A stretch of DNA of 62,642 bases from a virus (Duplodnaviria; Caudoviricetes), in the IMG/VR virus record IMGVR_UViG_3300046007_010469, positions 1 to 62,642 of that record; one strand, written 5' to 3'. Positions within the stretch are counted from its first letter, which is position 1, and each line of letters starts with the position of its first letter. The translations under genes and the position numbers were made by a program. Positions 16,641 to 43,011 of the stretch are shown here, in pieces. The notes under the pieces were generated by a model that had not been told where the DNA came from, searched no databases, and saw only the letters and a list, made by a program, of their open reading frames with translations.

Positions 16641-16667
16641 AAAAACCCGGGTAAGTCCCGGGTTTTT
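16641..16667. terminator. Bidirectional intrinsic terminator-like hairpin
   Basis: aaaaacccggg-taagt-cccgggttttt. Confidence 0.65.
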
Positions 16668-16962: not shown

Positions 16963-17142
16963 AGCCAAGGCCCCAGATTAAACTTCGTTTAAAAACAAAC
17001 AGCCAAGGCCCCAGATTAAACTTCGTTTAAAAACAAACAGCCAAGGCCCCAGATTAAACTTCGTTTAAAAACAAACAGCCAAGGCCCCAGATTAAACTTC
17101 GTTTAAAAACAAACAGCCAAGGCCGCACACTAAACTTCGTTT
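16963..17142. repeat. 38-bp tandem repeat x4 plus a degenerate fifth copy (AGCCAAGGCCCCAGATTAAACTTCGTTTAAAAACAAAC)
   Basis: Units start at 16963, 17001, 17039, 17077, 17115; internal palindrome TAAAC-TTC-GTTTA. Confidence 0.95.
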
Positions 17143-17537
17143 CGCCCCAGCACCGACAACGAAACCTCGTTTCTCTACAGCTCTAAGAGTAGAAATAAAA
17201 AAAATCCCGAAGCACCTGGCTCGGGATTCAGTAGTTTTAATCTAGTATATAGCTCTTTTTAATGAAATCTAGTCTAAATCCTGGTTTTAGGGTCTTTTTA
17301 ATGCAGGGTTTTAATAAACTCTAGTCTTAATCAGGTGTTTTTAACTCTCTGGGGTTAGGATTCTCTAAACCCCAGTGTTTTTCAGTTTCTTTTTAGCATC
17401 TTCCCTAAATAATAGTAGCCGAAGATAAACCAAGAGTCAATATTTTTTATTTTAGCTTTTGGGGATTGCCCTTTTCTAGAAGGTGACACTTGACTTTAAG
17501 CGTAGATTAGGCTATCCTAGTATAAAGGAGAAATCCG

Positions 17538-22272: not shown

Positions 22273-23268
22273 TTATTTTACCGGTACCAGAGCGTCTCGA
22301 AAAATATCCCAGGCTCGTTCCCAACTCCAGCGTAGACTACTTTGATATACACAAGTTCTATCTAGTAAGAGTGCTTGCTGCACTGCAAGGTCTAAAAATT
22401 CGTGCAGTACTCCTGTCACTCCATCATCTACTACATCTAGAGGTCCTTGTACGGGATAGGCTGCTACTGGAGTGCCACAGGCCATTGCTTCAATCATAAC
22501 CAACCCAAAGGTATCCCAACGACTTGGAAATACAAACACGTCTGCTTGTTGGTAGTAATATGCTAGTTCTGCTCCACGCTTTGCTCCGACAAAGTCAACA
22601 TTTGAGTACTTCTGTTTGTACTCTGCAAGCTTTGGTCCCTCTCCTACCATAATTTTCTTAGTACCTGGGCAGTCTAAGTTAAAAAATGCCTCGAGGTTCT
22701 TCTCTGCGCTCACTCGGCTAACACATAGGAGAACTGTTTTGCTGTTGCCATTTCTAACTGCCGGCTTAAAGAGACTACGGTCTACTCCTCGAGTCCATGA
22801 AACTACGTTATCCTTAAATCCGTGGTTACGTAACTCTGTTACCATGCTGTCAGTTGTAGTTAGTACTCTATTTGAATTTGAGTGAAACCAACGTATGAGA
22901 GGCCAGGTAATAGTTTCTGGTACTCCGAATAGCGCTTTTAACCCTTCAGGAAACTTAGTGTGGTAAGCAGTATTGTAACGATACCCACGTACTGTAAAAT
23001 ACCTTCGAGCAAACAGACCAAGAGGACCTTCTGTGGCGATGTGTATATAATCCGGAGCAATCGCCTCGATCTCCGCCCCCATCCCTGCGGGATAGGCAAG
23101 TTTGACTTCGTTATAGCGAGGGCAATCAACATAGCGGTACCGCCCGGGGTGAATATAACTAACGTTATAACCATCACGAGCCGCATACGGTTCAATATTT
23201 TTGTAGGTAGTGACAACACCGTTAATCTGCGTCGGAAGATTGTCCGTGACTATCAGTATCTGTTTCAT
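22273..23268 (-). CDS. GT4 glycosyltransferase (Agt-like glycolipid synthase)
   Basis: PQINGVV-like start, HIATEGPLG, YHTKFPE, DTFGLVMIEAMACGTPVAAYPV. Confidence 0.85.
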   Translation of the reverse strand: MKQILIVTDNLPTQINGVVTTYKNIEPYAARDGYNVSYIHPGRYRYVDCPRYNEVKLAYPAGMGAEIEAIAPDYIHIATEGPLGLFARRYFTVRGYRYNTAYHTKFPEGLKALFGVPETITWPLIRWFHSNSNRVLTTTDSMVTELRNHGFKDNVVSWTRGVDRSLFKPAVRNGNSKTVLLCVSRVSAEKNLEAFFNLDCPGTKKIMVGEGPKLAEYKQKYSNVDFVGAKRGAELAYYYQQADVFVFPSRWDTFGLVMIEAMACGTPVAAYPVQGPLDVVDDGVTGVLHEFLDLAVQQALLLDRTCVYQSSLRWSWERAWDIFRDALVPVK

Positions 23269-23992
23269 AATAAACTAATTCCCACCTTCCATCTAAATGT
23301 TCTAAGAGTGCGGTACGACTCTCTACCCAATCGCCGTCGTTCATATAGCTTACATCATTGATGCGCTTAATCTCTGCTCGATGAATATGCCCACATATAA
23401 CTCCGTTATACCCCTCACTCTTACAGTACTGTGCTAGGTGTTGCTCATACGAACTAATATACTGCAGAGCCTGTTTAGCATTCTGTTTTAAGTAGTTACT
23501 TAAACTCCAATATTCAAGTTTTAGCAGTTTACGCAGTGAATTTAACTGTAGGTTTAGCCAGATAGAAAAATTATACAGAGAGTCGCCAACGTGCATTAAC
23601 CACTTATGGTCAATCATTAGAGAGTCAAAAAAATCGCCATGTATGACTAGATAACGGTTACCGTCTAACCCTACATAGTCATAGCGGTCTAGCAGTTTGA
23701 TATTACCGAGTTCGAGTTCAAAGGGCAAAAACTTCCGTAGAGCTTCATCATGATTACCAAGTATGTAGTAGACTGCTGTACCACGTTTTGCCGCAGTTAG
23801 AATACGTCTAACTACGTTAGAATGCGATTGAGGCCAGTACCAACGTTGTTTCAGTCTCCAACCGTCAACAATATCTCCCACTAGGAATAAGTTGTCACAG
23901 GTGTATGTTTTTAAAAAAGCGCAGAGAGCGTCTGCGCTGCAACCTCGAGTACCGAGGTGAACATCTGAAATAAAGATACTCTTAACTTTCAC
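23222..23992 (-). CDS. plcP: Calcineurin-like phosphoesterase, PlcP/LpxH-like phospholipase C
   Basis: ISDVHLG, GDIVDGW, GNHDE, HGD.FD, CGHIH, NDGDWVES; coupled to GT4 gene; GTG start inferred. Confidence 0.75.
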   Translation of the reverse strand: MKVKSIFISDVHLGTRGCSADALCAFLKTYTCDNLFLVGDIVDGWRLKQRWYWPQSHSNVVRRILTAAKRGTAVYYILGNHDEALRKFLPFELELGNIKLLDRYDYVGLDGNRYLVIHGDFFDSLMIDHKWLMHVGDSLYNFSIWLNLQLNSLRKLLKLEYWSLSNYLKQNAKQALQYISSYEQHLAQYCKSEGYNGVICGHIHRAEIKRINDVSYMNDGDWVESRTALLEHLDGRWELVYYETDTDSHGQSSDAD

Positions 23993-24214
23993 GAGGCGGT
24001 TTCTCTTTTTGCTCTCGAACACGCTTATCTTTTTGCTCACACAAACAGTGGTCGCAAAAGGCAGAACCGTATTCCGCACAGCGCTTGCAAGGTGGGCGTT
24101 CTTTTTCTACTGACATAAATCTTCATACCGAGTAGTATACACTCTGTGAGTGCTAAGGTCTTTATGAGTTTTTTTAAATAGCGCTTCTAACAGTGTTTTC
24201 ATTTTATTCCTCTA

Positions 24215-24505
24215 AGTGCCCCACTTCTGTTGCTAGGCAGGGGCCTCCCCCTTACATTAGGCTGCTAGAGCCTGTGCAGAAGGTGCAAAGTTATCGTTTG
24301 CAGTTGTTGGTTTCTTGCGGTTACAGTCGCTTGCGCACTGGCTCCTAGTTTCCTTTTTCACACCTGTCGATCCCATTTCGGCCCCATCAAAGATACACTG
24401 TCATTACCACCATGCTCCCCCGCTTTACAGGGGCTATGTCTGTTCAGTTTATCTATGGTGGAGCCGTCGGCTTCGAAGCCGAGTCCAGCCTGTGTCTGAT
24501 TTACG
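24215..24505 (-). ncRNA. ssrA: Permuted two-piece tmRNA; tag (A)ANDNFAPSAQALAA
   Basis: T-arm/ACCA piece ends at 24456 and precedes the 5' piece GGGGCCGAAATGGGATCGAC starting at 24385; tag frame 24301-24257; outer boundaries approximate. Confidence 0.9.
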
Positions 24506-25154
24506 TCATCAGAGCTTGTACTTTTTCTTTTTGCAGTAATTCTGAGTGCATACCTTGATGTATTTCTCTGTGGCAATTAGCACACACGATTATACATTTG
24601 AGTAGCTCTTCCATTAAAATATGTTTTTCTGAGTGCCTCAAGTCAGATATTTTATACTCTTTTTTATCGGGGTCAAGATGATGAAAATCTAGTGCTGCTT
24701 TACATCTATCATACCCGCATATTTTACAAGAATAGTAACCCAATATTTTTAAAACAATCTCATATTTTTTAGTAGCTTCATTAGTAGCTATGCACTGGCG
24801 ACAATGTGCTCTGTAAAGTCTTTTTCCGTTACGGCTATGACCCGCGGTATAAAAACTGTCAAGAGGGAGTTCTTTTTTACAAGTGTTGCAGGTTTTTAAA
24901 GTATCAACCTCTACACCTAATATAGTTTTACGATACTGTTTCATAAAGTACGTGTTAAACGACGTAGCCACCGACTTATCAGACGGTTTTCCAAATATAG
25001 CTATAAGACCTCTACTAACTGCTTTACTGTCAATTTTATCTATTAAATAAGTACTAGGAGAGACATCTGTTTGTAGCACTGCTTCTAATACTAATTCATA
25101 ATTTTTTACATCTTTACGTTTAACTTTAGATAGCACAAATTCTTCATATGTCAT
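24501..25154 (-). CDS. HNH endonuclease abutting tmRNA
   Basis: CKICGYDRC.AALDFHHLDP..KE...KCIIVCANCHREIH; own promoter TTGACT-N17-CATAAT. Confidence 0.85.
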   Translation of the reverse strand: MTYEEFVLSKVKRKDVKNYELVLEAVLQTDVSPSTYLIDKIDSKAVSRGLIAIFGKPSDKSVATSFNTYFMKQYRKTILGVEVDTLKTCNTCKKELPLDSFYTAGHSRNGKRLYRAHCRQCIATNEATKKYEIVLKILGYYSCKICGYDRCKAALDFHHLDPDKKEYKISDLRHSEKHILMEELLKCIIVCANCHREIHQGMHSELLQKEKVQALMT

Positions 25155-25207
25155 GGTATTTTTCTTAATATATTATGACACTTAGACCCCTAAAAGTCAA
25201 GCTTTTT

Positions 25208-25390
25208 TTACATATAAGTTCGGAGATCCACTAGAGATATTTCAAAGCGCGGGCGAACGTCAATATTCAATCCGTATACGCCAACCCAGAGAGAGAACCA
25301 TAGCACAGAGTGGTATGACGCTTTTTCTCCAAGGTGCCCTACAGAGATAAATCCTTTGAGATACTCTGTAACATTAATTTCATCTTCCAT
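25208..25390 (-). CDS. Hypothetical protein
   Basis: Overlapping ORF chain. Confidence 0.4.
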   Translation of the reverse strand: MEDEINVTEYLKGFISVGHLGEKASYHSVLWFSLWVGVYGLNIDVRPRFEISLVDLRTYM

Positions 25391-25562
25391 CTTTATTCCT
25401 TACTGCACGCAATACAACTTCGTTGTTTCTCAGTTCGATCTCAATTTGCGAACCTTCCTCTAGTCCGAGTGCTTCCACAATCTCTGGCGGGATGCTCATT
25501 AGCACGTTATCATCATTGTACGGGTCGTCGAAAAAGATCTCGTCATAGGAGTAGGTTTTCAC
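25380..25562 (-). CDS. AbrB/MazE-like small protein
   Basis: MSIPPEIVEALGLEEGSQIEIE pattern. Confidence 0.6.
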   Translation of the reverse strand: MKTYSYDEIFFDDPYNDDNVLMSIPPEIVEALGLEEGSQIEIELRNNEVVLRAVRNKDGR

Positions 25563-25744
25563 TAGACGCTCCTGTTAATTGTCACAATCTCGTGCTCTTC
25601 AATCGTTGTTATCACATGTCCGTAGTCACTCTCAAAGCTATGCTCTAATTCATCAATCATTTGATCGAGTTCATCAGGGTCGAGCCGATCTTCGGTTTCA
25701 AGCTTTAAGATGACGGTCATTGCGACTGTATGTTTATAACTCAT
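25562..25744 (-). CDS. Hypothetical protein
   Basis: AGGAG RBS; overlap coupling. Confidence 0.55.
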   Translation of the reverse strand: MSYKHTVAMTVILKLETEDRLDPDELDQMIDELEHSFESDYGHVITTIEEHEIVTINRSV

Positions 25745-26991
25745 TGTAATGTTCTCCTATGTTCTTCTAGTTCTTTCAGCAGCGTGCCGAGTCTCCAATT
25801 TTCGCTCATGTCTACAGGCTCTAGTGTAAAAAACTCACTAGAGATAGCGTGCTTGATGCAGTTCCGGGTGAATGCCAGAGGATATCGAACGCCTGAAGCA
25901 TTCATGCCCGTGTTGACTAAGTAGACATTACAACGGTGCTGCTGTATTCGGTTCATCAGCAGGTTGCTATACTCGTGAATAGGACGCGGCATAAACGGCG
26001 AGCCATAGCACGGTGAGAACACCTTTTTGACTTCGCGCAATCCAGCTTCTGTGCCCGGCATTAGGCTGGTATAGCCGGTCTCGAACAGCAAGCGGATAGT
26101 CTCACCGCGCACCTGACTAATCGGAGGAAGGATGCCCTCTGCATCCATTGCAAGAAAGAAGATGTTGTGAGGGCTTTTAAAGGCAAATGGTGTGTGCGCA
26201 TACGCGTTTTCGACCATCTTCAGCGGATAGCTCAATCGAGCATTTGCCTCGTCGGGATTTTCAACTACAAGACAACCTTCGCTCCTAGCCAGTTCGACAG
26301 CATTGAAGATAGTCGGATGCGTCTCAGGTGACAGCCCCTCGCTCTTGGCATAGCAACCGGACTCGACCATATGTATTCCATTGTCGCTCCAGTACACCTC
26401 GTCGTCGCTAATCAATTGAAAATCTGGGTCAGAGCTCAGAGTCGTCTTACCAGTTCCACTAAGACCGAACATCAGGTTGTTCTGTCCGTTATAGGTAAAC
26501 GCACTACAGTGCATTGGTAAAGTGTTACGACGAGGCAGTTCGAAACCGAGGATGCCGAACACGCCCTTCTTGATTTCACCTAAGTAGGTTGTACCAGCAA
26601 TCAGCATCTCTCGAGCATCAAGATGAACGTAGATGCGTGGATGAGGAACTTCAACCTTCACACTATGAATGATTACCCAGTCTACCTGGTCGAAAGGAGC
26701 TGGGTAATCATAAGAAAGAACACTAAACATATTACGAACAAACTGAGCATGAACGTCGCTGTCTGTCAATACTAGAAAAAGGATTCCACCGCTGTAGAAA
26801 TATAGACGATGCGGGTATGCGTCTGAAATAGGAATACCCATCTTTAGACGGAGAGCAGTAAACTGCCCTTCTGTGCCGACCTTACAGTACTGCGGTCGAT
26901 GAGTACAGAGCTCTCGCGTCGCCTCTCCAAAGAAGACTTTGTGTTCTGGACTACGACCAGAGGGAACGGTTGTTATGTTATAGTTAGGCAT
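25741..26991 (-). CDS. pckA: Phosphoenolpyruvate carboxykinase (ATP), compact form
   Basis: GRSP, Y.GEIKK, PMHCS, FGLSGTGKTTLS, DDE, GCYAK, FSPCYGSPF, YLVNTG. Confidence 0.9.
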   Translation of the reverse strand: MPNYNITTVPSGRSPEHKVFFGEATRELCTHRPQYCKVGTEGQFTALRLKMGIPISDAYPHRLYFYSGGILFLVLTDSDVHAQFVRNMFSVLSYDYPAPFDQVDWVIIHSVKVEVPHPRIYVHLDAREMLIAGTTYLGEIKKGVFGILGFELPRRNTLPMHCSAFTYNGQNNLMFGLSGTGKTTLSSDPDFQLISDDEVYWSDNGIHMVESGCYAKSEGLSPETHPTIFNAVELARSEGCLVVENPDEANARLSYPLKMVENAYAHTPFAFKSPHNIFFLAMDAEGILPPISQVRGETIRLLFETGYTSLMPGTEAGLREVKKVFSPCYGSPFMPRPIHEYSNLLMNRIQQHRCNVYLVNTGMNASGVRYPLAFTRNCIKHAISSEFFTLEPVDMSENWRLGTLLKELEEHRRTLQ

Positions 26992-27125
26992 TGCGATGTT
27001 CCTTCGCACGCTGTTCTAGCAGCGCAATAATTTCTTGTGCAAGAGTCCAGTTCGGAACTCCGCAGTATTCAGGAACCTTATAGCGATCTAGTGTCACTAT
27101 AAGGTCCTGTAGTAGTTGGTGACGA

Positions 27126-27437
27126 CTACGCACGATTGTCTTGCCAACTATCGAGATACCGAATCTTTTGTTCTGTGGTCCAGCCTCGAAGATAGGAGTT
27201 ATCTTCATCAAAGAGTTGCAGGGTCTCTTCTTGTGTCATAATCCTAGAGTCTATAATTTGCTCTCCAAGGTGTTCTTGTGAGAGCTCTTTCACTTCCTCC
27301 ATTGTGACTTCGTCACGGGCCCACTCCAGCAGGTCAGAGTTAGTAGCCTCAACCTCTAAATTAAGACGCCGCAGTTCTTCCACTGGAATGCAATAGCGAT
27401 GCCGAAAAGTCTGAACAGTTGTAACGACTACATACAT
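27126..27437 (-). CDS. Conserved phage hypothetical protein
   Basis: FRHRY...EVKELSQEHLGEQI motif. Confidence 0.65.
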   Translation of the reverse strand: MYVVVTTVQTFRHRYCIPVEELRRLNLEVEATNSDLLEWARDEVTMEEVKELSQEHLGEQIIDSRIMTQEETLQLFDEDNSYLRGWTTEQKIRYLDSWQDNRA

Positions 27438-28082
27438 TTAAATCTCCAAATCTAGATAGTCAAGTTCGCCAATGCACTGAAAGAGAGTGGTTTCGGTCTG
27501 CAGTTGAGTAGTAAAATGCCAGTGCCCGAATATCCACTGCTGAGGCTGATGTGCCTCATAAAACTTATCCAGCCAATCAGCGGTGCGATTACGATACGTA
27601 GGACCGTGCAGCTTACCACTTTTCCAAAACATCTCATAGGAGATGCTGGCAGGGCAATCGTGCGTAATGAGAATGCGCGGCTTTGCAGACGTATAGGCGT
27701 CTAGCATAGCCTCGAATTGCTCATCACTGCACTCTTCGTCTGGCCACCAGTCATACATAGGAGTACGACGATACCAGCCGGGCGGCGCGTTTGGATTGTC
27801 AATACTCCACGCTCCACCAATGAACATGATGTCACCCTCAATCGTCCCGTCCGCAATATAGTTTGGGGCGGCACGACATGTCGCAGGATTGTCGTGGTTG
27901 CCGCGGATGAAACGGTGCTGCGGATGACGAGACTGCCATCCGAGAATATAGTCGTCTACTTCTTCACAGCCCGAGAAACCCAGACCATAGTCACCAATCT
28001 GGATACTCGGTCCGTCCCAGTCTTGCAGTAGAGCGCGGTAGGGAGTGTGAAGACCGTGAATATCACCAATCAAGCGTAGCAT
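27438..28082 (-). CDS. Metallophosphoesterase
   Basis: GDIHG, GDYG, RGNHD, THDCP, FGHWH. Confidence 0.85.
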   Translation of the reverse strand: MLRLIGDIHGLHTPYRALLQDWDGPSIQIGDYGLGFSGCEEVDDYILGWQSRHPQHRFIRGNHDNPATCRAAPNYIADGTIEGDIMFIGGAWSIDNPNAPPGWYRRTPMYDWWPDEECSDEQFEAMLDAYTSAKPRILITHDCPASISYEMFWKSGKLHGPTYRNRTADWLDKFYEAHQPQQWIFGHWHFTTQLQTETTLFQCIGELDYLDLEI

Positions 28083-28315
28083 TTTGTGTACTCCAAAGGT
28101 TATAGTAGAGATATGCGTTAGCGCCGGCTAAGAAGGCTACAAGCAGGGAAGGAGATGCCAAAGCGACGGCTGCGATATGCGTAAGAAAAAGCGCTTGACA
28201 GACTATTTTCATAGAACCTCCTGTAGGGTGAGTAAAAAGCGTTGCAGCAGTTCGATAAAGGCTGGCAGAATAGCGATAGTGGCGTAGAGACTTAGAATCC
28301 AGAAACCGAGACGTA

Positions 28316-28618
28316 TCATCTTTTTTTCAAGTAGCTCCGCACATCAAAGTTATAGTTGTCCAGTATTTGTTTGAACTCTTCTGAGTCCTCAAAACGTTCT
28401 GAATATCCAAGATAGCTTTCAACTGTTTCGAGTTGTTGAGGCTGCGGCGTCTTTTGCCGTTTTTTCTTCTTCTTTTTGTGCACTACAGGTTCTTCTTCTA
28501 CTTGGGCCTCTGCCCAATGGTAGACGCCACGAGTCACTGTTGACGTAAAGCTAAAGATAGCAATCGCCGGCAACAGAATAACAAAGACAAAAACGAAGAA
28601 TCCAAGTAGTATTTCCAT
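28316..28618 (-). CDS. Membrane protein
   Basis: N-terminal TM helix, poly-Lys stretch. Confidence 0.55.
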   Translation of the reverse strand: MEILLGFFVFVFVILLPAIAIFSFTSTVTRGVYHWAEAQVEEEPVVHKKKKKKRQKTPQPQQLETVESYLGYSERFEDSEEFKQILDNYNFDVRSYLKKR

Positions 28619-28719
28619 GACAACTCAACATAGCATAGTTTTAGCACTAGAGCAAGAAAAAAATGAAAAAGGCTAGAGCGTTTCCACTCTAGCCAGTTTG
28701 TTCCCAGTAGTTTTACAAC

Positions 28720-29814
28720 TTACTGAGGAATATCACCCTGAATACCTTCTACATAAAAGTTCATGCTTAGTAGGTCACCATCAGGAGCAGTCACACCATC
28801 CTCTAGCCAGACCGAGCCATCTTGACGGCGAATCGGACCTGTAAAGGGATGGTAGGTACCGGCAGCAATCGCATCACGTAGAGCTTCCGCTTCTGCCTTC
28901 ACATCCGCAGGCACTACGTCTGTAATAACGCCAATCTCAACCTCGCCTTCACGAATTCCAGCCCAGGTGTCTGTAGAGGTCCAAGTTCCCTCAAGTACTT
29001 CTCCTACTCGCTTAACATAGTAAGGAGCCCAGTTATCGATGATAGAAGAAATGCGAGGGCTTGGAGCATAGTCAAGCATGTCAGATGCTTGTCCAAATCC
29101 TAGTACTGCTTCTCCAGCCTTAGCAGCTTCTGCAAGTGGAGCTGTAGAATCAGTATGTGAAGCAATAATGTCTACACCTTGGTCAATGAGTGCTCTAGCT
29201 GCATCAGCTTCTTTAGCAGGGTCAAACCAAGTGAATGCCCACACTACAGACAGCTCAACGTCTGGATTTACTCGCTTTGCGTGTAGGTAGTAGGCGTTAA
29301 TGCCCATAACTACTTCGGGAATTGGGAAAGAAGCAATATATCCAATCTTATTAGTTTTGGTTAGTCGACCTGCCATAGTTCCTTGTACGGCACGCCCTTC
29401 ATAGAATCGAGCATTGTAGATTGCAACATTCTCATGGTCACGCTTATAGCCGGTTGCGTGCTCAAAGCGTACATCTGGAAATTGAGCCGCTACAGTATTA
29501 GTAGCATCCATATATCCGAATGAAGTGGTAAAGATAATATTACAGCCTGACAAGGCCATTTGAGTTAAAACTCGTTCGGCATCAGCTCCTTCTGGAACAC
29601 TCTCCTGCCACGCAATCTCAACTCGGTCACCATACGCCTCTTTAACAGCAAGAGCGCCTTGGTGATGTTGGTAGGACCAACCTAAGTCTCCAATCGGACC
29701 TACATACACAAAACAGGCTTTAGCCTTTTCTAGGGGTTGTGCAGCAGCTGCACTAGTAAACATACCGAGACTCATAGCAGCCGCGGCCAATAGACTATTA
29801 GACAAAAATTTCAA
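28720..29814 (-). CDS. BMP-family (PnrA-like) ABC substrate-binding protein
   Basis: YVGPIGDLGWSYQH, TTSFGY, FEHATGYK, WFDPAKE; signal peptide; terminator hairpin at ~28668-28695. Confidence 0.9.
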   Translation of the reverse strand: MKFLSNSLLAAAAMSLGMFTSAAAAQPLEKAKACFVYVGPIGDLGWSYQHHQGALAVKEAYGDRVEIAWQESVPEGADAERVLTQMALSGCNIIFTTSFGYMDATNTVAAQFPDVRFEHATGYKRDHENVAIYNARFYEGRAVQGTMAGRLTKTNKIGYIASFPIPEVVMGINAYYLHAKRVNPDVELSVVWAFTWFDPAKEADAARALIDQGVDIIASHTDSTAPLAEAAKAGEAVLGFGQASDMLDYAPSPRISSIIDNWAPYYVKRVGEVLEGTWTSTDTWAGIREGEVEIGVITDVVPADVKAEAEALRDAIAAGTYHPFTGPIRRQDGSVWLEDGVTAPDGDLLSMNFYVEGIQGDIPQ

Positions 29815-29829
29815 TGTGTGCTCCTAACT

Positions 29830-31478
29830 TAAAATGAAAAATTAAAGGCTAGAACATCGCTGCTCTAGCCTTTGCAACTGTTTAGTTGCTATTCACACTC
29901 TGAGTTCATCCTTTTACGTTGTGCAGCGCTACACATGAATATAACGAGTTATCGCAGAGTGCGCCTATTGGGTCCGCCCTATACCCACCGCTACGCAGAA
30001 GGCATTTGATTTCGTCTCGAGCCGACGGACAACATCGAGCATAGACTGTTACTGCAGAGTTGATTCTCTGTCAGAGTGTGTGCCAACAGCCTAATTTGCA
30101 CACTCCTATCACCCCCTATACGGGATGAGATACGTCATTAAAATACAACGTGGTTAACCAACTGCTAGCGTGCAGCTGCCTTCTTAGGGCACGGAGGACC
30201 GACGACTTTTATTATAGAGAGTTTGGCTCCACAGCTATCAGACTTCTCTCTAGGGGGTTAACCCAACTGTTTCCAGTTGCTGGACATATCCCTTAATTCC
30301 AGTGACTCTAAGGCTTGCCTAAATTGCAAGGAAAGGAGGTTTTTTGCTTAGAGTATTCTACAGGATTGCGTTGTTGTTTTAATAACCAATATTAAACATT
30401 TTTAGTTGCTGCAACAATCCTAATTGACAAGTGAAACCGGGGTATTGCGTATCTCTAGCTGCGGCGCCACACTAGAGAACTTTTGGCTTGTGCTTTCGTT
30501 ACCTACTCACTTTCCCCACGCCAAGCACGCTAACGACTTCACTAAAACTGTAGACAGGCTCTAAATGGGGTGTCTCCCTTGGTCTAAACCGTAAAGAGCT
30601 GTGAACGTCCTGTCTACAGATTAAGTGAAGTTGCCAGTTACTTCCTTCTGGCAGTATCTCTTTCGTGGATACAGGTTAGTGGGTTGGACGAGTGTTTACG
30701 GACATATTTTAAGGCTGTCTCACCTATCTCCCTACACAATCACACTAGTTGGGCAGGGTAGCGTAACTAGAACCCATCTCTGTTACGCATATTGCGCTAC
30801 TCTTAAGTGCAGGATTCACACCTGCGTGGCCCCGTCTACCAGGGCATCTTAGTTTGTTTGTGCCTTGCACTTCTAGATCAACTTAAGGTAGTCACGGAGA
30901 GGTGTTTTGCTACGCGGGCACAACCTCAACAAAGCCTGCAGCAGTTGACGTTAAAACGAGTAATACCCCCGCATTAAGACAACTGTAACCTACGGAACAC
31001 CAAGAACGGTCATCTCTTGCTTTAACGGCTCCATACACCGCACAGTCATTAAATCCCTCGTACGTCAGACTGCGAATTGAGTACGAAGAAGTAGAGACAC
31101 TGCTCAGACAGCTTCTACATATTTATCACCTAGCCCACACTCGGTTTCCCGCAAGGTCTAAGGCTGAGAAAAGCTAGCATCCGCACGCATAGATGCTACG
31201 ACTACCATTTAGCGAGGTCTCAGTTTCACTGGAATCTATACACAGACGCAATTGCTTGCCGACGGGTTACTCCGAAGAAACCTATTGAACACTAGGTAGT
31301 TAAATACGGCAGATTGTTCAGGGCACAATCTGCAAGGCCCAACTTACTACCTCCCCGCAGGGTAGAGTTCAGTATATCAACTAGAAGAACTGAGTCCTCC
31401 TAGTGACGAGCGAACAGTGAAATAACCGTCTTAGACTTACAGCCTACGACCTGGGCTAGTCCGCTGTTTCGCTCTGTA
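29830..31478 (-). ncRNA. Candidate large structured ncRNA or ncRNA cluster
   Basis: No credible ORF over ~1.65 kb; TTGCTT-N17-TATATT promoter at ~31486-31514; many hairpins; terminator-like stem at ~29842-29873. Confidence 0.55.
30361..30421 (-). ncRNA. CAGCAA hairpin RNA, copy C
   Basis: GGATTGT...CAGCAA...hairpin...GCAATCC, matching copies at 43012 and 43248. Confidence 0.6.
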
Positions 31479-31521
31479 TAATTTAATATACGCAATTTTT
31501 AAGGAACAAGCAAGCGTAAAA

Positions 31522-31664
31522 TGGATTGGAGGGAGCACGTAGCAAGGATAAAAACTGCAATCAATTACTCGAGATACTCAATTGCAAGAGTCTTCATCCA
31601 CCCATCTTCCTACATCGCGTAGGCTGTGTTACTAGTTGCGCGACTAGTTATTACACCACTCCAA
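31522..31664 (-). ncRNA. tRNA-like ~143-nt RNA with CCA end
   Basis: Acceptor-like UUGGAG/CUCCAA plus UCCA; starts 3 nt after the tRNA-Met CCA. Confidence 0.5.
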
Positions 31665-31667
31665 ACT

Positions 31668-31744
31668 TGGTTGCGGAAGGGGAGGACTCGAACCTCCGAT
31701 CTTCTGGTTATGAGCCAGACGAGATGCCGCTTCTCTACCCCGCA
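31668..31744 (-). tRNA. tRNA-Met(CAU), initiator-like, with a 2-nt insertion in the 3' acceptor strand
   Basis: Cloverleaf; CU-CAU-AA loop; encoded CCA. Confidence 0.75.
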
Positions 31745-32188
31745 AAAGTTCTACTCTCAGCTGCACTGCATCTACTATTAAGCCCGATACGCTGGCGCAC
31801 TTAGTGCAGGTGAGAGTAGAAGCGGGAGATGGCCTCTAGGCCTAGGACCATCTCCCATGTGACTACAACTGGTAAGGTTGCTTTTTATAGACTTAATCAC
31901 TCAGTCCCGCGAGAGTCAAACCACCCGCTCGGTTCTGTTGACATACTCTACAACAGCATAGAGTCACCTTGTTACTCTTGGTGCCAGAGATGTGATGAAT
32001 TAGTAGCTACCAGGAACCATTCATCATATTTCGCATCAATACGCAGCCCCCAACCCGCCCGTATCGTGACCGCTCCATTTTCCGCCCAAACCGTCGAAAC
32101 GGGCTAAACGTCTAACATGCGGCCTTCCTTATTTCTGTATTTAATATAACTCAAAAAATAGCAAGGGGCAAGTGTAAAATTACTACAA

Positions 32189-32482
32189 TTACAGTATTAC
32201 CCCCGCACGCATCGCATCTACTAGTCTCTGCGTTGCTGCCTCCGAAAGAACTCCGTTCTTCCATCGACAAGCCTTCCAACCGCGCGACCGAGTCCAGATA
32301 GCAAAGGCTCGACCACGAAGATAAGGAATAGCCTCTTCCTTAGTATAGAGGTCATAGTCGTATGGCAGATTCTTCATGGCACTAGCATATCCGCGCTGAA
32401 ACGCCTCAACACGAGATAGACTTTGCGCAAGCCTTAGTGGTGATACAAAAACTCCGCCAGTATTGTGCTTACGTTCAATCAT
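32189..32482 (-). CDS. Hypothetical protein
   Basis: GAGGAG RBS; own promoter. Confidence 0.65.
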   Translation of the reverse strand: MIERKHNTGGVFVSPLRLAQSLSRVEAFQRGYASAMKNLPYDYDLYTKEEAIPYLRGRAFAIWTRSRGWKACRWKNGVLSEAATQRLVDAMRAGVIL

Positions 32483-32543
32483 GCTTGTCTCCTCTATCTA
32501 TATTTTATATTAGCGTATTTTTAGGAAACAAGCAAGAACATTT

Positions 32544-32792
32544 TTACGCTGCCGACTGCTGTGACTCTGGTGAATGTTCAAGTAAGCTGTCCCAACGGAA
32601 CGACCGCCATTCATCTTTGTCTACATCCCAAACACACTGAACGTGCTCCGGGCCGCGTGCGATACTATACGTATCAATCCCAATCAAGTCAGGAACAAGC
32701 GTAGCACGCATGTCTCGAATACTACCATCACGTTTCCGAAAACGTAGACTCACGATTCCGGTTTCCAGCAGACTGATTAGATCTTTGTTCAA
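32544..32792 (-). CDS. WYL_2/Sm-like SH3 (DUF2693-like) protein
   Basis: F.K.DGSIR.M.ATL...WD..K.EWRSFR. Confidence 0.8.
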   Translation of the reverse strand: MNKDLISLLETGIVSLRFRKRDGSIRDMRATLVPDLIGIDTYSIARGPEHVQCVWDVDKDEWRSFRWDSLLEHSPESQQSAA

Positions 32793-33001
32793 CTAGTTCT
32801 CCATATTCATGTTGCAAAACAGTGGCAAGGTGTGAAAGGTCTTGTAGAGCACTAACAGTATTTTCTGCGGACTCTACATAGGTGCACATATAGTCATAGA
32901 GTTTAAGATATTGCACAGACGGTTTCATGTTTTCCTCTTTATAATTTAATATAGCTCAAACTTTAGTAAGAGTCAAGACCTATTTTAATGTAACTAGGCA
33001 C

Positions 33002-33532
33002 TTAAACTAGCAATAGCTTTCGTAACTTACTTGCTTCTGTCTCATGCAAACGCTTCATTAGAGTAGTTACGTTCATACGCAGCTCTTCTAGACTACCATT
33101 ATTATCAATCGTAAAGTCTGTCATCCACGGTTCAATACTAATCGAGGTAGACGGTTCTGGAGGTAGATGGTCACTGCGGTCTACCCAAATAGAATAGTCG
33201 AAGCTTCCTGAGTTGCGTAGCGCGTGAAACTCTGCTTTGTTACGCAGTCCACAGTAGATATCATATCGTTCGTAGAGTGCTCGTCCAAGTCGAGAAGCGT
33301 CAGGCCGATTGAAGGCCCGAATGAGTTCGTACCACTCTTGACGGTGATTATGCCTATCTTCAAAACACTGCTCTAGTGAAGAGTATCCGTATTTGCTCTT
33401 TAGTGCATCATAGATAAACAGTTCCGCACAAAACATTGAGGAACTTTGAAAGCTGTAACGATACAGTGTGCGAAGCAGCTCACACACTGTATCTTTACCG
33501 TGCCTAGCGTATCCGACTACCATTAGTCGCAT
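33002..33532 (-). CDS. Deoxynucleoside monophosphate kinase-like protein
   Basis: G.ARHGKDT P-loop; IDNNGSL. Confidence 0.75.
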   Translation of the reverse strand: MRLMVVGYARHGKDTVCELLRTLYRYSFQSSSMFCAELFIYDALKSKYGYSSLEQCFEDRHNHRQEWYELIRAFNRPDASRLGRALYERYDIYCGLRNKAEFHALRNSGSFDYSIWVDRSDHLPPEPSTSISIEPWMTDFTIDNNGSLEELRMNVTTLMKRLHETEASKLRKLLLV

Positions 33533-33985
33533 TTTAAAATATCCTTTCCATAAAGTTGATGCAGTGCACGCACAAGATCACGTACATCTACAGCAACTCC
33601 TTCATACGGATTGCCTGCATAGTGAATACCTACCTTGTGGCGATTATAACTCTCGCGCTGTACGACTACAGGAGCGTGCTTATCACTAATGAGTATTTTT
33701 GTCATAGACTCGGCTTTCGTCTTCCACAGGCTTTTTCACTTCGTGAATTACCCAAAGCGCTAGAGGCAGATAGGAAACTCCCAGCACAATTGCCAGCATC
33801 AATAGTCCTCTCCTAAGGAACCCGAAGGGTTTCGATATGCACAGGCGTATAGTCAGTTTGCTCCACACAAACGCAGAATGTTAGCGTGTCCGAAGTGTGT
33901 ATCTGATGTAACCCATATATCACGCATGTCTCGCTCCTTTTATGATTTAATATACCTTAAAAAGAGTGAGACTGCAAGACGCAAC

Positions 33986-34462
33986 TTAATTTCCTGGGAC
34001 GACTCGTTGCAACCAAGAGCTGTTTTCTTGAGACTCTGCGTTCGCAAGAGTAGCCTGAGTGGCTTGACTACGAATCTGTGCGTTAGCCTGATCTAAGGCT
34101 GCGGCACTCTCTTTGTAGTAGTTCTCGTAGGCTAGTATGATAGCTTGTTGCTGTTGAACTAGTGCACGAATATCACTAAAGTTTAGACCTAGATTGCCAT
34201 ATCCATCTCCCGTAAGAGCATAGAGAGCAAAGGCTTGACCTTGAGTTTCTAGTCTAGATTTGACTGCATCAATATTATCTTTATTAATCACAATCCACTC
34301 TACCTTACGTAAGTTAAGTTCGTCTACCGGAGGTAGAGTAAGTGGCGGCTTTTCCACAGGCTTTGCACTAATTTCAATTGCCCGGGGCGGAGGTGTTGAG
34401 CAAGCCACGAGACTTATAGCTATCATAGAGCCAAGGACACTCTTTGTTAAAAGCTGTCGCAT
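33986..34462 (-). CDS. o-spanin (Rz1-like lipoprotein)
   Basis: Lipobox LVAC followed by Pro-rich segment; overlaps i-spanin. Confidence 0.7.
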   Translation of the reverse strand: MRQLLTKSVLGSMIAISLVACSTPPPRAIEISAKPVEKPPLTLPPVDELNLRKVEWIVINKDNIDAVKSRLETQGQAFALYALTGDGYGNLGLNFSDIRALVQQQQAIILAYENYYKESAAALDQANAQIRSQATQATLANAESQENSSWLQRVVPGN

Positions 34463-34868
34463 TTTCTGCATTCCTTTCTGCATCTGTTAGTTCTGCTCCT
34501 GAAAGAAGCTCAAAACATCTACCGGCGTTTTCTGTACCGCGATTTACTGCACGTTCGATACCTTCGGCATTTGCTAGAGCGGCGGCAGTAAGGTCGATTT
34601 GCTGCAGCTTTGTTGCAAGTTGCTGGTTTTGACGACGAATATTTTGATAGGCGGCGTTGAGAGTATTTAGCTCTGTCTGTGCTGCGGCATAGCTCTCTTG
34701 CAGTGAGTTAATAGTTTCTTCATTCATCTGCACTGCAGTCTCTAACTTTGCGGCATTTTCTACTAGAACTGCCATACGCTTCTGAGTGTCTTGATAATAG
34801 AGGTAAAATCCTCCAGCCATAGTAGCCATAATAGCGCCCATGACCATCATTCCTTTGAGTCCTAACAT
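34374..34868 (-). CDS. i-spanin (Rz-like)
   Basis: N-terminal TM plus coiled coil; downstream of endolysin. Confidence 0.7.
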   Translation of the reverse strand: MLGLKGMMVMGAIMATMAGGFYLYYQDTQKRMAVLVENAAKLETAVQMNEETINSLQESYAAAQTELNTLNAAYQNIRRQNQQLATKLQQIDLTAAALANAEGIERAVNRGTENAGRCFELLSGAELTDAERNAENATAFNKECPWLYDSYKSRGLLNTSAPGN

Positions 34869-34951
34869 AGAGCTGACTCCTTTTAGCGGGGCTATACTAG
34901 CAAAGCTTAAAACTTTGCTAGCAGCAATCTTAATGCCTAACGGCGGGTATT

Positions 34952-35821
34952 TTATTTTAGGAGCTTGGCGAGGGTTTTTGGCCCGGCGACTCCGTCTGCG
35001 ACTAATCCATTTTTTGACTGCCAGGATTTCAAGGCTTTTTCGGTTCCAGGGCCAAAGGAGCCGTCGGATGTAAGGCCAAGCGCCCGCTGTAGCGCTTCGA
35101 CGACGGGGCCGCTCGACCCTTTGCGGAGGGTTTGGGATAGGTTCAGAGCGCTCGGGTTCGGGGGCGGAGCGCTCGGAGTAAAATTTCCACCAAGTACCTG
35201 CAGTGCGTGTTCAAATCGCTGTTTGCGGTCAGCTAAACCAATGTCCCCACCATTGATTATCTTAGTCATCTTTACTATGTCTTTAGCGTCTGCGACGGCA
35301 TTAAGCTTCTTTGCATTCCAGAACCAGCAGGCACTCTCAATTGCACCTTTTTCTGTCGCAACATACGCTGCAGCCTCATCTGCAGTCATGCCCACAGTCG
35401 ATCCAAAAGCTCCATAGTTATTACGCCCCGTGAGCTGCTTTAATCCACGACCACGAAACTTCCATCCGTCTCCAGGCTGCACATTACCTAGTGCTCCTTT
35501 AGCAGACCGGTTTTCATCCATATAGACATAGTTAGCAATTTTTTCTGGATTACGTGCGTACTCTGCGGCGTTCCGCTTGCCTGGTCCAAAATACTTTGGA
35601 AAAACTCGTAGTAGCGTTTCTTCCCGATAGTTTAAGTTCTCTTCGAGTGTTTTAAAATTATTAGACTCGTGTGCGCATTGGGCTAGAAAGCCGGCGACAC
35701 GAGCCTCAGTAGTAATATCATATTTTGGAAAAATAGAGACACAAGCCTCATACCAACGGTCTGAGTCTGGATTGCCTCGTAGAATTTCTCTTAGTTGTTC
35801 CTTTGTAAAGTTAAATTTCAA
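34952..35821 (-). CDS. Endolysin, GH19 plus C-terminal peptidoglycan-binding domain
   Basis: FLAQCAHES, GDGWKFRGRGLKQLTGRNNY, TKIINGG..GL.DR; DG.FGPGT repeats. Confidence 0.92.
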   Translation of the reverse strand: MKFNFTKEQLREILRGNPDSDRWYEACVSIFPKYDITTEARVAGFLAQCAHESNNFKTLEENLNYREETLLRVFPKYFGPGKRNAAEYARNPEKIANYVYMDENRSAKGALGNVQPGDGWKFRGRGLKQLTGRNNYGAFGSTVGMTADEAAAYVATEKGAIESACWFWNAKKLNAVADAKDIVKMTKIINGGDIGLADRKQRFEHALQVLGGNFTPSAPPPNPSALNLSQTLRKGSSGPVVEALQRALGLTSDGSFGPGTEKALKSWQSKNGLVADGVAGPKTLAKLLK

Positions 35822-35839
35822 TAACTTTCTCCTTTCTGT

Positions 35840-36481
35840 CTAGTTCCAGAGGGCTTCATAGTACTTGCCGAACAGCCGGAATCCGTTGTTCATACGTGCT
35901 TGATGAGCACGTTCGCCCTCACGGTCATATTTACCTTCTTTTTTCAGTTTAAACTCACGATTACCGTCCTCATCTGGCTCTGAGCTAAATTCAAACTCTG
36001 CGTGCTCAATGATGTAGTCCTCTTCCCACCAAGCACGAGTCTTCTGCTCAAATGCCCAAATCATCTCATTGAGAACCCAATCCCAACGAGCGTGAACATT
36101 ACCGTCCTCGTGCCACTTCTCGACAGGAGGCGACTCAGTGCTACGAAGATGCTCAGGAACGTCATCATCATCGACGTTCGGAGAGCCGTGCTTAGTCGTT
36201 TTAAGTTGCTTCAGCATAGGAAGAATAATATGGGCAAGAGTATGGTCCATACTCCAAGTATCCCAACGGTCGAGCTTTACGACAATGCGACGTTCTTTTT
36301 TGTCCAGATAGCGATTAATCGTAGCATTGTAAAAAGATTGAAGACCGTTCTCAATTTTTTCAAGAGTATTGTCAATCCAGTCTTTATTATCCTGCCACTC
36401 ATTACCATATCGCCGAGTCATGTGACGTTCGTGAACTCGACTAATCCAGCGGTCAATGTACGGACCAATATATACTTTCAT
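35840..36481 (-). CDS. Conserved phage hypothetical protein
   Basis: WDTWSMDHTLA...GFRLFGKYY..LW family pattern. Confidence 0.75.
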   Translation of the reverse strand: MKVYIGPYIDRWISRVHERHMTRRYGNEWQDNKDWIDNTLEKIENGLQSFYNATINRYLDKKERRIVVKLDRWDTWSMDHTLAHIILPMLKQLKTTKHGSPNVDDDDVPEHLRSTESPPVEKWHEDGNVHARWDWVLNEMIWAFEQKTRAWWEEDYIIEHAEFEFSSEPDEDGNREFKLKKEGKYDREGERAHQARMNNGFRLFGKYYEALWN

Positions 36482-41570: not shown

Positions 41571-42995
41571 TTAAGGGTTGTAACGAGGATTTAGTAGAGT
41601 TTTCAACATAACATTGTAGGGAGTGTAGTCTTCGAGGTCGTTTGCAAGAACACTCTGCATAACGCTAGGAGAAAATCCAGACACATGCGCGGTTCCACGG
41701 GAATCGAACTGTACCGGAGAACCGTTCTTATCATAACGAGCATTTAGGTTCCAGAAGACAATGCGAGGAACAGTATAGCCAACTGCTTCGTATTTACGCT
41801 TAATCATCTCCATAGCTGTATCGTCGTAGCGAGTGCACTGGTCGAACTGCATGTCAGAGAGGATAAGCAGTGTTGCAGGCATGTCTGCTTGAGGTACTCG
41901 ATACTTCAGAGCTACATCCAGAATGCGGTCAAATGCAGCGTGCAGATTAGTATTCATAGCCCACTTAGCACCGCTAAGCTGACGCATACGGCTGGACAGA
42001 TTGCCTTGCAAGTGCACAAACTCAGGAGCCCCACTAAAAGTCAAGATTAGGTCTTTAAACTTAGAACGGTTTTTTTCGCTGAGATAAACACCAAGAGCTA
42101 TTGCAACGTCAATCGGCTGCACAACGCCTGGAGCAGAGTAGCCCGCGTTACCCATCGAACCGCTTACATCTACCATCGGCAGAATGCTAGCGTCGCCTAC
42201 ATAGTTAGGCAGGGCTTGCCACTGAGCGTCTGCAACCGCAGCATTGCCACGGGCAACAGACTTAACAACATCGTGCGGGTAAACAGCACCAGCGTTAATC
42301 TTAACAGTAGGGTCACGCTGTTGAACAGGCTTTTGCAGCTCTCGAATATAGGTGCTGTACGCCTCTGGAGCGTTACACCCAAAAGCCTTTTGGTACCGAG
42401 CACTTGCAAGCGACGGAACATGTGAGAAGTTAATGGAATTCCACTCCTTAGCACACATCTGCGACTCGACTACCTTAGTAAGGCGAACGAGTAGCTTACG
42501 GTACTGCTTCGGAGACAGTTCAAGAAACCGAGTCAGCTCAGCGGCGACTGGACCTTTACGCGGCATCCATTTTGCACAAAGGGCGTTACCATCAGACAGT
42601 GCTTGCTTGATGAGAGCAAATGCAGCCTGACGATTAGTTGCATCACGATAAGTGAACAAATCGTCCCAACGACCGAGTTCCGGTATCTTGTGCATAAACT
42701 CTCCGGCCAGAGCTGGGTCGGTAGACTCTAGAGAGGAGAGTAGATTGCGAAAGGTCTGTCGCTCGCCAGCCCCGCCACGGATATCACGTGCCCATAGCAG
42801 AGTACGCACAGTGAGGTCTTCGCTCTCACCGAGCGCAGCATGAAGCTGAGAAGTTAAATCAACACCGCGGGCGCTGCCCACAGTAGAGAATAGGTCAAGG
42901 ATACGCGAACCGGTGTTAGCGTGAGCACGCATCCCGTTCTCAGTACGAGTTTCGGCAGTTTTAAGATGATTACGTACAGCAGCAGTAAAGTTCAT
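41571..42995 (-). CDS. DUF2828-family protein (TROVE-like helical domain plus vWA)
   Basis: TENG, RDIRGG.GER, GRWDDL, KWMPR, DVSGSM (MIDAS), SDMQFD, VFWNL, SGFS. Confidence 0.85.
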   Translation of the reverse strand: MNFTAAVRNHLKTAETRTENGMRAHANTGSRILDLFSTVGSARGVDLTSQLHAALGESEDLTVRTLLWARDIRGGAGERQTFRNLLSSLESTDPALAGEFMHKIPELGRWDDLFTYRDATNRQAAFALIKQALSDGNALCAKWMPRKGPVAAELTRFLELSPKQYRKLLVRLTKVVESQMCAKEWNSINFSHVPSLASARYQKAFGCNAPEAYSTYIRELQKPVQQRDPTVKINAGAVYPHDVVKSVARGNAAVADAQWQALPNYVGDASILPMVDVSGSMGNAGYSAPGVVQPIDVAIALGVYLSEKNRSKFKDLILTFSGAPEFVHLQGNLSSRMRQLSGAKWAMNTNLHAAFDRILDVALKYRVPQADMPATLLILSDMQFDQCTRYDDTAMEMIKRKYEAVGYTVPRIVFWNLNARYDKNGSPVQFDSRGTAHVSGFSPSVMQSVLANDLEDYTPYNVMLKTLLNPRYNP

Positions 42996-43011
42996 GATAT
43001 TTTCCTTCAAT

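Follow-up and report, generated by a model that had tools for sequence, protein, structure and literature searches.

The RNA Island and Its Layout

The stretch analysed here, called the window throughout, comprises 62,642 nucleotides (nt) of the IMG/VR virus record IMGVR_UViG_3300046007_010469 (Duplodnaviria; Caudoviricetes), a 62.6 kilobase (kb) fragment with a completeness estimate of 27%. The minus strand carries most of its genes and ARAGORN predicted 25 transfer RNA (tRNA) genes; the source is a large, tRNA-rich phage. The runs in which the window's sequence was found are mostly labelled freshwater. The subject of this analysis is a region of ~2.3 kb, termed the island, which an earlier note made from the sequence alone had described as nearly free of open reading frames (ORFs), entered by two promoters, rich in long stems and next to a tRNA, and had interpreted as either a new large RNA or a polycistronic array. 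The genes near the island encode a metallophosphoesterase, a PnrA-like Bmp lipoprotein (bmp), a deoxynucleoside monophosphate kinase-like protein, a spanin and an endolysin.

Read along the minus strand, the order is promoter P1, a leader of ~390 nt, tRNA-Met, promoter P2, ~1.6 kb of RNA-coding sequence, an intrinsic terminator and then the bmp gene. Within the RNA-coding sequence, three structured modules (C, B and A) and a Y-RNA-like hairpin can be delimited (Table 1). Both promoters of the earlier note were located, and both belong to a family of the form TTG(C/A)NN-17-TATATTAAA that has ~10 distinct sites on the minus strand and one on the plus strand, its 16 raw matches standing above the shuffled sequences (mean 1.8, maximum 6). 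The tRNA is also present, but it lies within the island and not beside it.

Table 1. Features of the island and of the Ro60-fold gene locus, in window coordinates; L050, L051 and L052 are the close relatives described in the text
Feature	Position	Strand	Size	Remarks
Promoter P1	32,143-32,171	minus		TTGCCC-17-TATATT, then AAAT; ~10-site promoter family
Leader RNA U	31,745-32,136	minus	~390 nt	Ahead of tRNA; hairpins 31,856-31,823 and 31,821-31,749
tRNA-Met (CAU)	31,673-31,744	minus		ARAGORN; Rfam tRNA 51.1 bits, cut-off 29
Spacer between tRNA and P2	31,528-31,668	minus	~140 nt	Absent from L050-L052 (four-way alignment)
Promoter P2	31,486-31,513	minus		TTGCTT-17-TATATT, then AAAT; identical in L050-L052
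5' hairpin of P2 transcript	31,408-31,474	minus		Most variable stretch, 88% identity bin
Module C	30,680-31,390	minus	~660-800 nt	C1 ~31,372-31,310, core ~31,347-30,680
Module B core	30,425-30,660	minus	~240 nt	Long interrupted hairpin, arms 30,631-30,609 / 30,558-30,536
Y-RNA-like hairpin	30,361-30,421	minus	61 nt	Between B and A; identical in L050 and L052
Module A	29,966-30,353	minus	~290-380 nt	Core kept in distant homologues 30,252-29,966
Intrinsic terminator	29,844-29,873	minus		13-bp stem, then AAUUUUU; closes island
Ro60-fold protein gene	41,571-43,010	minus	479 aa	Outside island
Two further Y-like hairpins	43,312-43,248 and 43,079-43,014	minus		Directly upstream of Ro60-fold gene

Relatives and Conservation

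The island (29,600-32,400) had no megablast match among 50,697 cultured phage records, and sensitive blastn against cultured phages returned matches to the tRNA-Met only (58 records). None of 30 viral loci retrieved with the neighbouring bmp gene as bait showed island homology, and five of the six loci from a 17-base motif scan of viral contigs were chance matches, as was the one match from a scan of reference prokaryote genomes, which fell in an archaeal metagenome-assembled genome. The distant viral contig G001/L002 was the sole match of a 38-mer from the tRNA-Met. A metagenome scan, for which the pattern was a 57-nt block common to the window and this contig, led to three close relatives, with island identities of 95% for L050 and 92% for both L051 and L052, and to four distant loci (L046 and L047/L048/L049).

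The island is among the best-conserved DNA of its neighbourhood and is not decayed DNA. In an alignment of 15.9 kb of the window with the L052 locus (14.4 kb), the three 200-nt bins of 30,100-30,699 scored highest of all (96.5, 98.0 and 97.0% identity), compared with 66.5-96% in the protein-coding flanks, and in megablast pieces the island reached 92.1% against 83.0% and 87.6% for its flanks. As the top three bins lie in the ORF-free island, it is constrained at least as strongly as the surrounding genes. The order C-B-hairpin-A is the same in all four close genomes. P1 differs from L051 and L052 at only three spacer positions, with identical -35 and -10 hexamers, a promoter like P2 stands ahead of the homologous RNA in G001 and in a further related phage, L060, and a like terminator directly follows module A in L051 and L052.

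A profile of the four close sequences matched G001 in two stretches only, corresponding to modules A and B, which are 18 kb apart there. The syntenic site of L060 carries a minimal RNA gene of ~200 nt, in which a promoter leads into C1 and the apical loop of module B, and which ends in a terminator from the same family as that of the island; a homologue of the window's 100-aa (amino acid) gene comes next. The island is thus a mosaic that has grown by the addition of cassettes, which are also found elsewhere in other phages.

Coding Potential

The island is non-coding, without a conserved reading frame on the transcribed strand. Across 54 stepped windows of 2,300 nt, the lowest value for the longest stop-free frame, 95 codons, belongs to 29,901-32,200, followed by 112 and 115 codons for the next-lowest windows, and stops of all three kinds are scattered through the six frames of the island. 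Stop-codon recoding was considered and rejected, as no frame exceeds 148 codons, or 90 on the minus strand, when TAA, TAG and TGA are read as sense one at a time. The description of ~2.3 kb as nearly ORF-free is therefore borne out, and recoding does not open the region.

None of the 11 minus-strand ORFs of at least 25 aa is intact in both L050 and L051, and a reading of the region as small ORFs was rejected, as none is conserved on the transcribed strand. Three of 15 antisense ORFs survive in relatives, all within a stretch that is 96-98% identical, where survival is expected; a 92-aa antisense ORF over the leader is broken in relatives. Compared with L051, the island carries 149 substitutions, which are spread 52/44/53 by position modulo 3 and show no codon periodicity. 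Eleven of the 14 insertions and deletions are not multiples of three, the largest being deletions of 52 nt and 98 nt in the tRNA/spacer region.

Structured RNA Modules

Three of the four stems named in the earlier note lie where it had placed them. The stem at 31,749-31,821 (19-nt arms, 95% complementary), with the adjoining hairpin at 31,823-31,856, has a z of -5.6, and the hairpin at 31,408-31,474 has a z of -5.4. The fourth is real, but its arms are 30,536-30,558 and 30,609-30,631 and not 30,562-30,620. The first of these stems and its adjoining hairpin belong to leader U, which would start at P1, is 92-96% identical to L052 and carries a compensatory C-G to U-A change in a hairpin in L050. 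The 5' hairpin of the P2 transcript keeps its stem by way of one-sided changes and is absent from L060, which begins with the next element.

The tRNA-Met between these parts matches its counterpart in G001 at 95% identity over 79 nt. In L050 (~3095-3165) and the aligned L051 and L052, the site keeps the 5' end and the CAU anticodon arm, the D-arm and T-arm differ, the 3' half is different and ARAGORN makes no call. The window's canonical tRNA-Met, along with the 140 nt of extra sequence, suggests replacement by recombination.

For module C, most of which was found in close relatives alone, RNAalifold on the four close sequences gave 261 pairs, six of them compensatory, and a predicted end-closing helix of 31,341-31,335 with 30,686-30,680. 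L060 also has C1 and the piece 30,846-30,797, separated there by 7 kb; they show compensatory changes as well as a compensatory paired deletion, and C1 stands directly behind a like promoter.

Module B has a homologue in G001 at 9,103-8,828, which corresponds to ~30,635-30,395 of the window (core 9,103-8,860, E 2e-17), and its second domain is closed by GCGUGGGG / CCCCGGU. Over four sequences, 78 pairs were obtained, 94.2% paired, with 11 compensatory pairs where shuffles gave 2.8 +/- 1.4 (0 of 500 as many) and slid controls 0-4.

The homologue of module A in G001 lies at 27,577-27,293 (window ~30,258-29,966), and a shorter form without the central insert is present in L046 and L047-49; in all of these distant phages, the module is inside a tRNA array. 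Neither the window nor G001 holds a paralogue, giving one copy per genome. The consensus of six sequences has 41 pairs, with 90.4% of cells pairing, and 11 compensatory pairs, where shuffles gave 5.1 +/- 1.6 (0 of 500 as many) and slid controls 3-4. One hairpin stem reads AGAGAG, ACAGAG or AGUGAG, with a matching partner each time, and the module also has an invariant single-stranded UAUAAUAAAAGUCG, a long-range helix GGUCC.CC / GG.GGACC and two 3' hairpins. The 3' end of module A in L047 abuts the 5' end of a tRNA with the anticodon CUA. This tRNA, of the amber-suppressor type, occupies L047 887-962 directly after the module. A further oddity near module A is a tRNA-like gene with an unassignable anticodon at G001 26,818-26,893, ~400 nt downstream of it.

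Of the checks proposed in the earlier note, Infernal against Rfam and a collection of homologues have an outcome: compensatory changes exceed the shuffles in both A and B, and modules A, B and C have no Rfam 15 family. A cmscan of the whole window at gathering cut-offs gave only tRNA matches in the island. At E <= 5-10, searches of 29,600-32,400, 30,670-31,490 and 29,950-30,690 showed no large-RNA family among the matches, and neither module C (30,670-31,490) nor module A (29,950-30,690) was matched. The island is neither GOLLD nor ROOL, since even a limit of E <= 10 brought no model match. ARAGORN and Rfam found no tRNA-like part in module A, the module B core or module C. An RNase P identity for module A, prompted by an AAGUC-containing block, was dropped for lack of any RNase P model match. 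CGUCGG and AAGUCG are weakly enriched, with 3 of 13 and 2 of 11 of their minus-strand sites falling in the island. No prior description of the three modules was found in the literature, and the motif lists of a study that mined 8,495 candidate structured RNAs from IMG/VR may contain them (PMC10690425).

RNA Library Evidence

Island sequence was found in 17 RNA runs from eight studies, mostly freshwater, with 10-34% of sampled words present. Contigs of four of these runs (X1, X3, X4 and X8), each from a different study, were aligned to 13 kb of the window and combined to cover 29,973-31,347. Module C is represented in all four (30,682-31,272 in X1, 30,682-31,238 in X3, 30,679-31,145 in X4 and 31,045-31,347 in X8), as is module A (30,055-30,313 in X1, 29,984-30,345 in X3, 30,146-30,344 in X4 and 29,974-30,353 in X8), and module B with the hairpin is represented in two (30,368-30,582 in X3 and 30,339-30,592 in X8). 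The contig ends of three studies coincide at 30,679-30,682, and the X3 contig has adapter at both ends (30,682 and 31,238), which is a weak hint of a real RNA end at the border between C and B. In two runs, there are also contigs whose match is limited to the 51-nt invariant block of module A and which diverge beyond it, so that the same libraries must contain further members of the module A family.

In the four runs, no contig lies on 23,000-29,275 or 31,348-36,000 except at 32,081-32,110, although such holes prove nothing, and two contigs of depth 3 lie in the bmp gene. This uneven cover is no evidence on abundance, because a permuted transfer-messenger RNA (tmRNA) at 24,215-24,562 is likewise without a contig. 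Just past P1 (32,105-32,130, minus), there is a strong Shine-Dalgarno-like AAGGAAGG, followed by ATG and four codons only, and a divergent X8 contig with a loose end at 32,110 retains the AAGGAAGGC block despite differing upstream sequence.

The Y-RNA-Like Hairpin and the Ro60-Fold Protein

The 61-nt hairpin consists of a 9-base-pair closing stem (AGGAUUGU / GCAAUCCU), a large loop starting UGCAGCAAC and a small apical stem. The fold of 30,425-30,355 has this plan of closing stem, large loop and apical hairpin, which is common to all seven copies folded. The strict motif occurs three times in the window and four times in G001, always on the gene strand, against 0.075 expected, and the other two window copies lie directly upstream of a gene for a 479-aa protein.

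An AlphaFold model of this protein, built on an alignment of 31 sequences, has a predicted local distance difference test score (pLDDT) of 71. Its 12 best Foldseek matches in the PDB are all Ro60/TROVE proteins (E 1.4e-8 to 2.7e-5, ~510-550 columns), including Ro60 of Thermus phage phiLo, Deinococcus Rsr, and Xenopus and human Ro60. The protein is therefore predicted to have the fold of a HEAT-repeat ring with a vWA domain. It has thousands of relatives, with homologues in 710 cultured phage records, from phages of Escherichia, Mycobacterium, Salmonella, Vibrio, Listeria, Staphylococcus and others. No description of a DUF2828 function, this being one of the Pfam families matched by the protein, was found in the literature.

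The association of hairpin and gene extends to other phages. A relaxed detector (stem, U(N)C(A/C)GCA and closing CCUG) applied to 24 viral loci with the protein gene returned 47 elements over 518 kb, where five shuffles gave 0-2. These elements belong to 15 of the 24 loci, every one on the strand of the gene and most at most 750 nt upstream of it, and by eye most of the remaining loci have hairpin variants ahead of the gene. A looser detector of stem and CNGCA was unspecific (seven matches, against ~9 in shuffles) and only the GGAU...AUCC form is counted here. In many of the 47 elements, a T-arm, an acceptor-like hairpin and a D-arm follow one another as in the permuted tRNA-like domain of YrlA, and two elements match the Rfam YrlA model below threshold (33.1 and 29.1 bits, cut-off 69). 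This domain is absent from the three window copies and present in G001 (Rfam tRNA 41.3 bits).

Immediately after module B in G001 come two tRNA-like hairpins, and after these the protein gene, with 67% identity to its counterpart in the window. This arrangement indicates that module B and the hairpin form a conserved unit, located by the Ro60-fold gene there and in the island here, and the hairpin is probably one RNA with module B. As both the motif and the model tests fail, the hairpin was filed as a divergent Y-like family and not as YrlA.

The best Rfam match of the island hairpin is to Dictyostelium Class I RNA, below threshold (21.6 bits, cut-off 41.5). Three independent compact Y-like hairpins (30,361-30,420; L067 7,473-7,526; L073 1,230-1,319) have this same best match, with sub-threshold scores of 21.6-26.3 bits against 41.5. 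In both kinds of RNA, the ends are closed by a short stem, after which comes a ...UACAGCAA-type motif. The Pfam family DUF2828 is also found in eukaryotes, and a protein partner common to the Y-like hairpins and Class I RNA is conceivable.

Related systems have been described in bacteria and phages. YrlA RNAs with a GNCGAA motif are reported beside Ro60 genes in both (PMC4201824), and Ro60 of Thermus phage phiLo is reported to bind two phage Y-like RNAs together with the host polynucleotide phosphorylase (PNPase) (PMC12135203). According to these accounts, the link between Ro60 and PNPase is made by a Y RNA, both in the RYPER complex of bacteria and in the phiLo complex (PMC4201824; PMC12135203). 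In Listeria phage CKA15, three highly transcribed non-coding regions lie at most 2 kb upstream of an Rsr-like gene (PMC12282133).

Interpretation

The island is, with high confidence, a real array of functional structured RNAs. Of the two possibilities in the earlier note, the polycistronic array fits best, with modules that are conserved, covarying, present in RNA libraries and separate elsewhere, and one large RNA is less likely because other phages have A, B and pieces of C at separate sites. Our overall reading, to which we assign a probability of about 0.6, is that the island is a polycistronic array of stable RNAs which partly serves a phage particle resembling that of Ro60 and Y RNA. 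Its parts differ in strength. The Ro60 link for module B and the hairpin, drawn by analogy, is tentative and falls a little short of an even chance, and it is unlikely that modules A and C serve the same particle. These two modules are read as new stable RNAs in the same transcript, which may be further partners, independent regulators or decoys, and module C could represent a new class of large RNA. A bolder version, in which new large stable RNA families (C of ~660 nt, A and B of ~300 nt) and the Y-like hairpins would all be subunits or clients of a Ro60-like particle, is conceivable but doubtful.

Under the overall reading, the host sigma-70 RNA polymerase would initiate at P1 and P2 and end at the terminator, and the enzymes responsible for maturing tRNAs and structured RNAs would process the precursors into the stable species. 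As module A abuts the 5' end of a tRNA in other phages, cleavage by RNase P would set its 3' end. The end-closing stem and the C(A/C)GCAA loop of the hairpin would be bound by the Ro60-fold ring protein of the phage, and the attached domain may recruit a second partner, as in the RYPER and phiLo complexes. By the same analogy, the Y-like RNA could link the ring with client RNAs or a nuclease, which would allow the phage to redirect RNA turnover or quality control while it infects the host.

Several points weigh against this reading. Neither the strand and level of an RNA nor its true ends can be read from assembled contigs, the breaks at 30,345-30,353 may have arisen in assembly, as they coincide with an A-run length polymorphism, and leader U has no RNA contig beyond the 30-nt piece at 32,081-32,110. 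Structure is local and not uniform, as z is -2 or lower in 11 of 44 overlapping 120-nt windows of the minus strand (mean z -0.8). The covariation was obtained from few sequences: six for module A, four for module B, of which one is distant and the source of nearly all the information, and four close relatives for module C, where 6 of 261 pairs are compensatory. On the Ro60 side, the island hairpin does not match the Rfam YrlA and Y_RNA models, and the hairpin copies carry U(N)C(A/C)GCAA without the GNCGAAN0-1G motif of YrlA. The Pfam matches of the 479-aa protein are DUF2828, DUF7788 and VWA_2, with no TROVE match listed, and neither phmmer nor profile searches against the PDB gave any chain, Ro60 included. 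The Foldseek TM-scores, 0.30-0.46, are modest and come from a model with a pLDDT of 71. In the window, moreover, 10 kb separate the island and the Ro60-fold gene.

The transcript from P2 to the terminator (~1.6 kb, comprising C, B, the hairpin and A) could instead be one giant ornate RNA similar to GOLLD or ROOL, formed by domain accretion. The constant order of its parts in four close genomes and their bracketing by one promoter and one terminator would agree with this, as would the overlap of ~15 nt between the X8 contigs of neighbouring modules (30,339-30,592 and 29,974-30,353) and the 200-nt version at the same site in L060, which would mean that domains were added within one transcript. 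A position next to a tRNA in a phage is likewise described for GOLLD and ROOL (PMC12286853). However, a giant RNA is difficult to reconcile with modules A and B being 18 kb apart in G001, A standing alone between tRNAs in L046 and L047, and two pieces of C being 7 kb apart in L060. Contigs of three studies also end at 30,679-30,682, one of them with adapter, and no Rfam large-RNA model matches, and a giant RNA is considered improbable. Equally improbable is that the RNAs are decoys or sponges that act independently of the Ro60-fold protein on host factors of defence or RNA decay, for example nucleases directed at tRNAs or regulators that bind RNA. No target can be identified from sequence, no repeats mimicking a known guide or substrate were found in the island, and the sole specific association found is with the Ro60-fold gene, even though the modules are shuffled between phages in the manner of accessory counter-defence cargo and environmental RNA libraries of several studies contain the RNAs. 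The RNAs are co-transcribed with a tRNA and lie within tRNA arrays in relatives, and some members of the hairpin family have tRNA-like domains, yet modules A, B (core) and C have none.

It is very improbable that the island consists of decayed genes or of a DNA element, such as a replication origin or packaging site, with incidental transcripts. It is ORF-free and flanked by an obvious insertion, as bmp is absent from L051 and L052, and its folding energy is only mildly below that of shuffles overall (mean z -0.8), but it is also the most conserved DNA of the 14-kb comparison. RNA helices are kept by compensatory changes, homologues occupy other genome positions in other phages, contigs of four RNA libraries cover the island, and no iterons or direct-repeat arrays were found in it.

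The array of stable RNAs is the preferred reading, and overall the island is akin to the phage stable RNAs of tRNA clusters and to Y-like RNAs. As in Y RNA and YrlA, the partners of Ro60 and Rsr, and in Yrl1 and Yrl2, the partners of the phiLo Ro60, the 5' and 3' ends of the hairpin form a stem under a large internal loop. There are several copies per genome, some of which lie next to a Ro60-fold gene. Some copies in relatives have the permuted tRNA-like domain of YrlA, and two relatives give sub-threshold Rfam matches. The loop motif differs, being C(A/C)GCAA here and GNCGAA in YrlA (PMC4201824). The island copy differs further in having no tRNA-like domain, in its fusion to the 240-nt module B and in lying 10 kb from the protein gene, and the protein itself belongs to Pfam DUF2828/DUF7788 with no TROVE match listed, with Rfam Y-RNA models below cut-off.

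GOLLD and ROOL are described as large structured phage non-coding RNAs that are tRNA-adjacent, occur in lake samples and have no assigned function (PMC12286853), which is also true of the island. The module C contigs, at 557-591 nt, are in the size class of such RNAs, which as single self-assembling molecules are ~500-800 nt. In contrast to these RNAs, the island has no Rfam model match at E <= 10 and is a mosaic of separable modules. The tRNA gene cluster of phage T4 produces species 1 and 2, which are stable non-tRNA RNAs of ~120-140 nt released by tRNA-processing enzymes. The island is similar in having non-tRNA stable RNAs among phage tRNA genes, co-transcribed and of unassigned function, but its RNAs are 240-700 nt, and their processing is suggested by the abutment of module A and a tRNA in L047. 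In Listeria phage CKA15, the non-coding transcripts are on the same strand as the Rsr-like gene and at most 2 kb from it, and are proposed by the authors to be Y RNAs (PMC12282133). That phage belongs to another group and is likened here by description only, and in the window the island and the protein gene lie apart.

To our knowledge, phage stable RNAs beyond tRNAs are few, and those known (GOLLD, ROOL and the T4 cluster) have no assigned function. The island adds three covarying RNA modules without an Rfam family, which are present in lake RNA libraries of several studies and move between phages as cassettes inside tRNA arrays. The fusion of one module to a hairpin family that flanks a Ro60-fold gene offers a handle on function, and the roles of phage Ro60-like proteins and their RNAs become testable in tractable phage-host pairs. 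If the bolder version given above is true, RNA-scaffolded rewiring of host RNA decay would be a widespread and so far unstudied phage strategy, given the >700 cultured records with the protein.

Other Features of the Window

The bmp gene (28,720-29,814), together with the rest of 28,695-29,970, is an insertion relative to L051 and L052, both of which lack bmp. This insertion is flanked by two similar terminator hairpins (GGCUAGAG...CUCUAGCC), at 28,694-28,671 and 29,873-29,844. On the other side, ~400 nt upstream of the island, an 82-aa gene of the WYL_2 family (Sm-like SH3 barrel; 32,544-32,792, minus) encodes what is possibly a small nucleic-acid-binding protein.

The permuted tmRNA mentioned above (24,215-24,562, minus) is of the two-piece, alphaproteobacterial type (Rfam tmRNA_permuted, 104.5 bits), and the same kind is present in the two related phages G001 (45,445-45,830) and L060 (12,515-12,886), which hints at an alphaproteobacterial host. 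Another ORF-poor stretch lies at 14,972-17,538, with a longest stop-free frame of 112 codons in 14,951-17,250 and no listed ORFs of at least 45 aa in 16,642-17,537. Two genes are unusual cargo for a phage, one encoding a phosphoenolpyruvate carboxykinase-like protein (Pfam PEPCK_ATP, E 4e-87) at 25,741-27,009, and the other a CHASE2 sensor fused to an adenylate/guanylate cyclase domain at 49,567-51,600.

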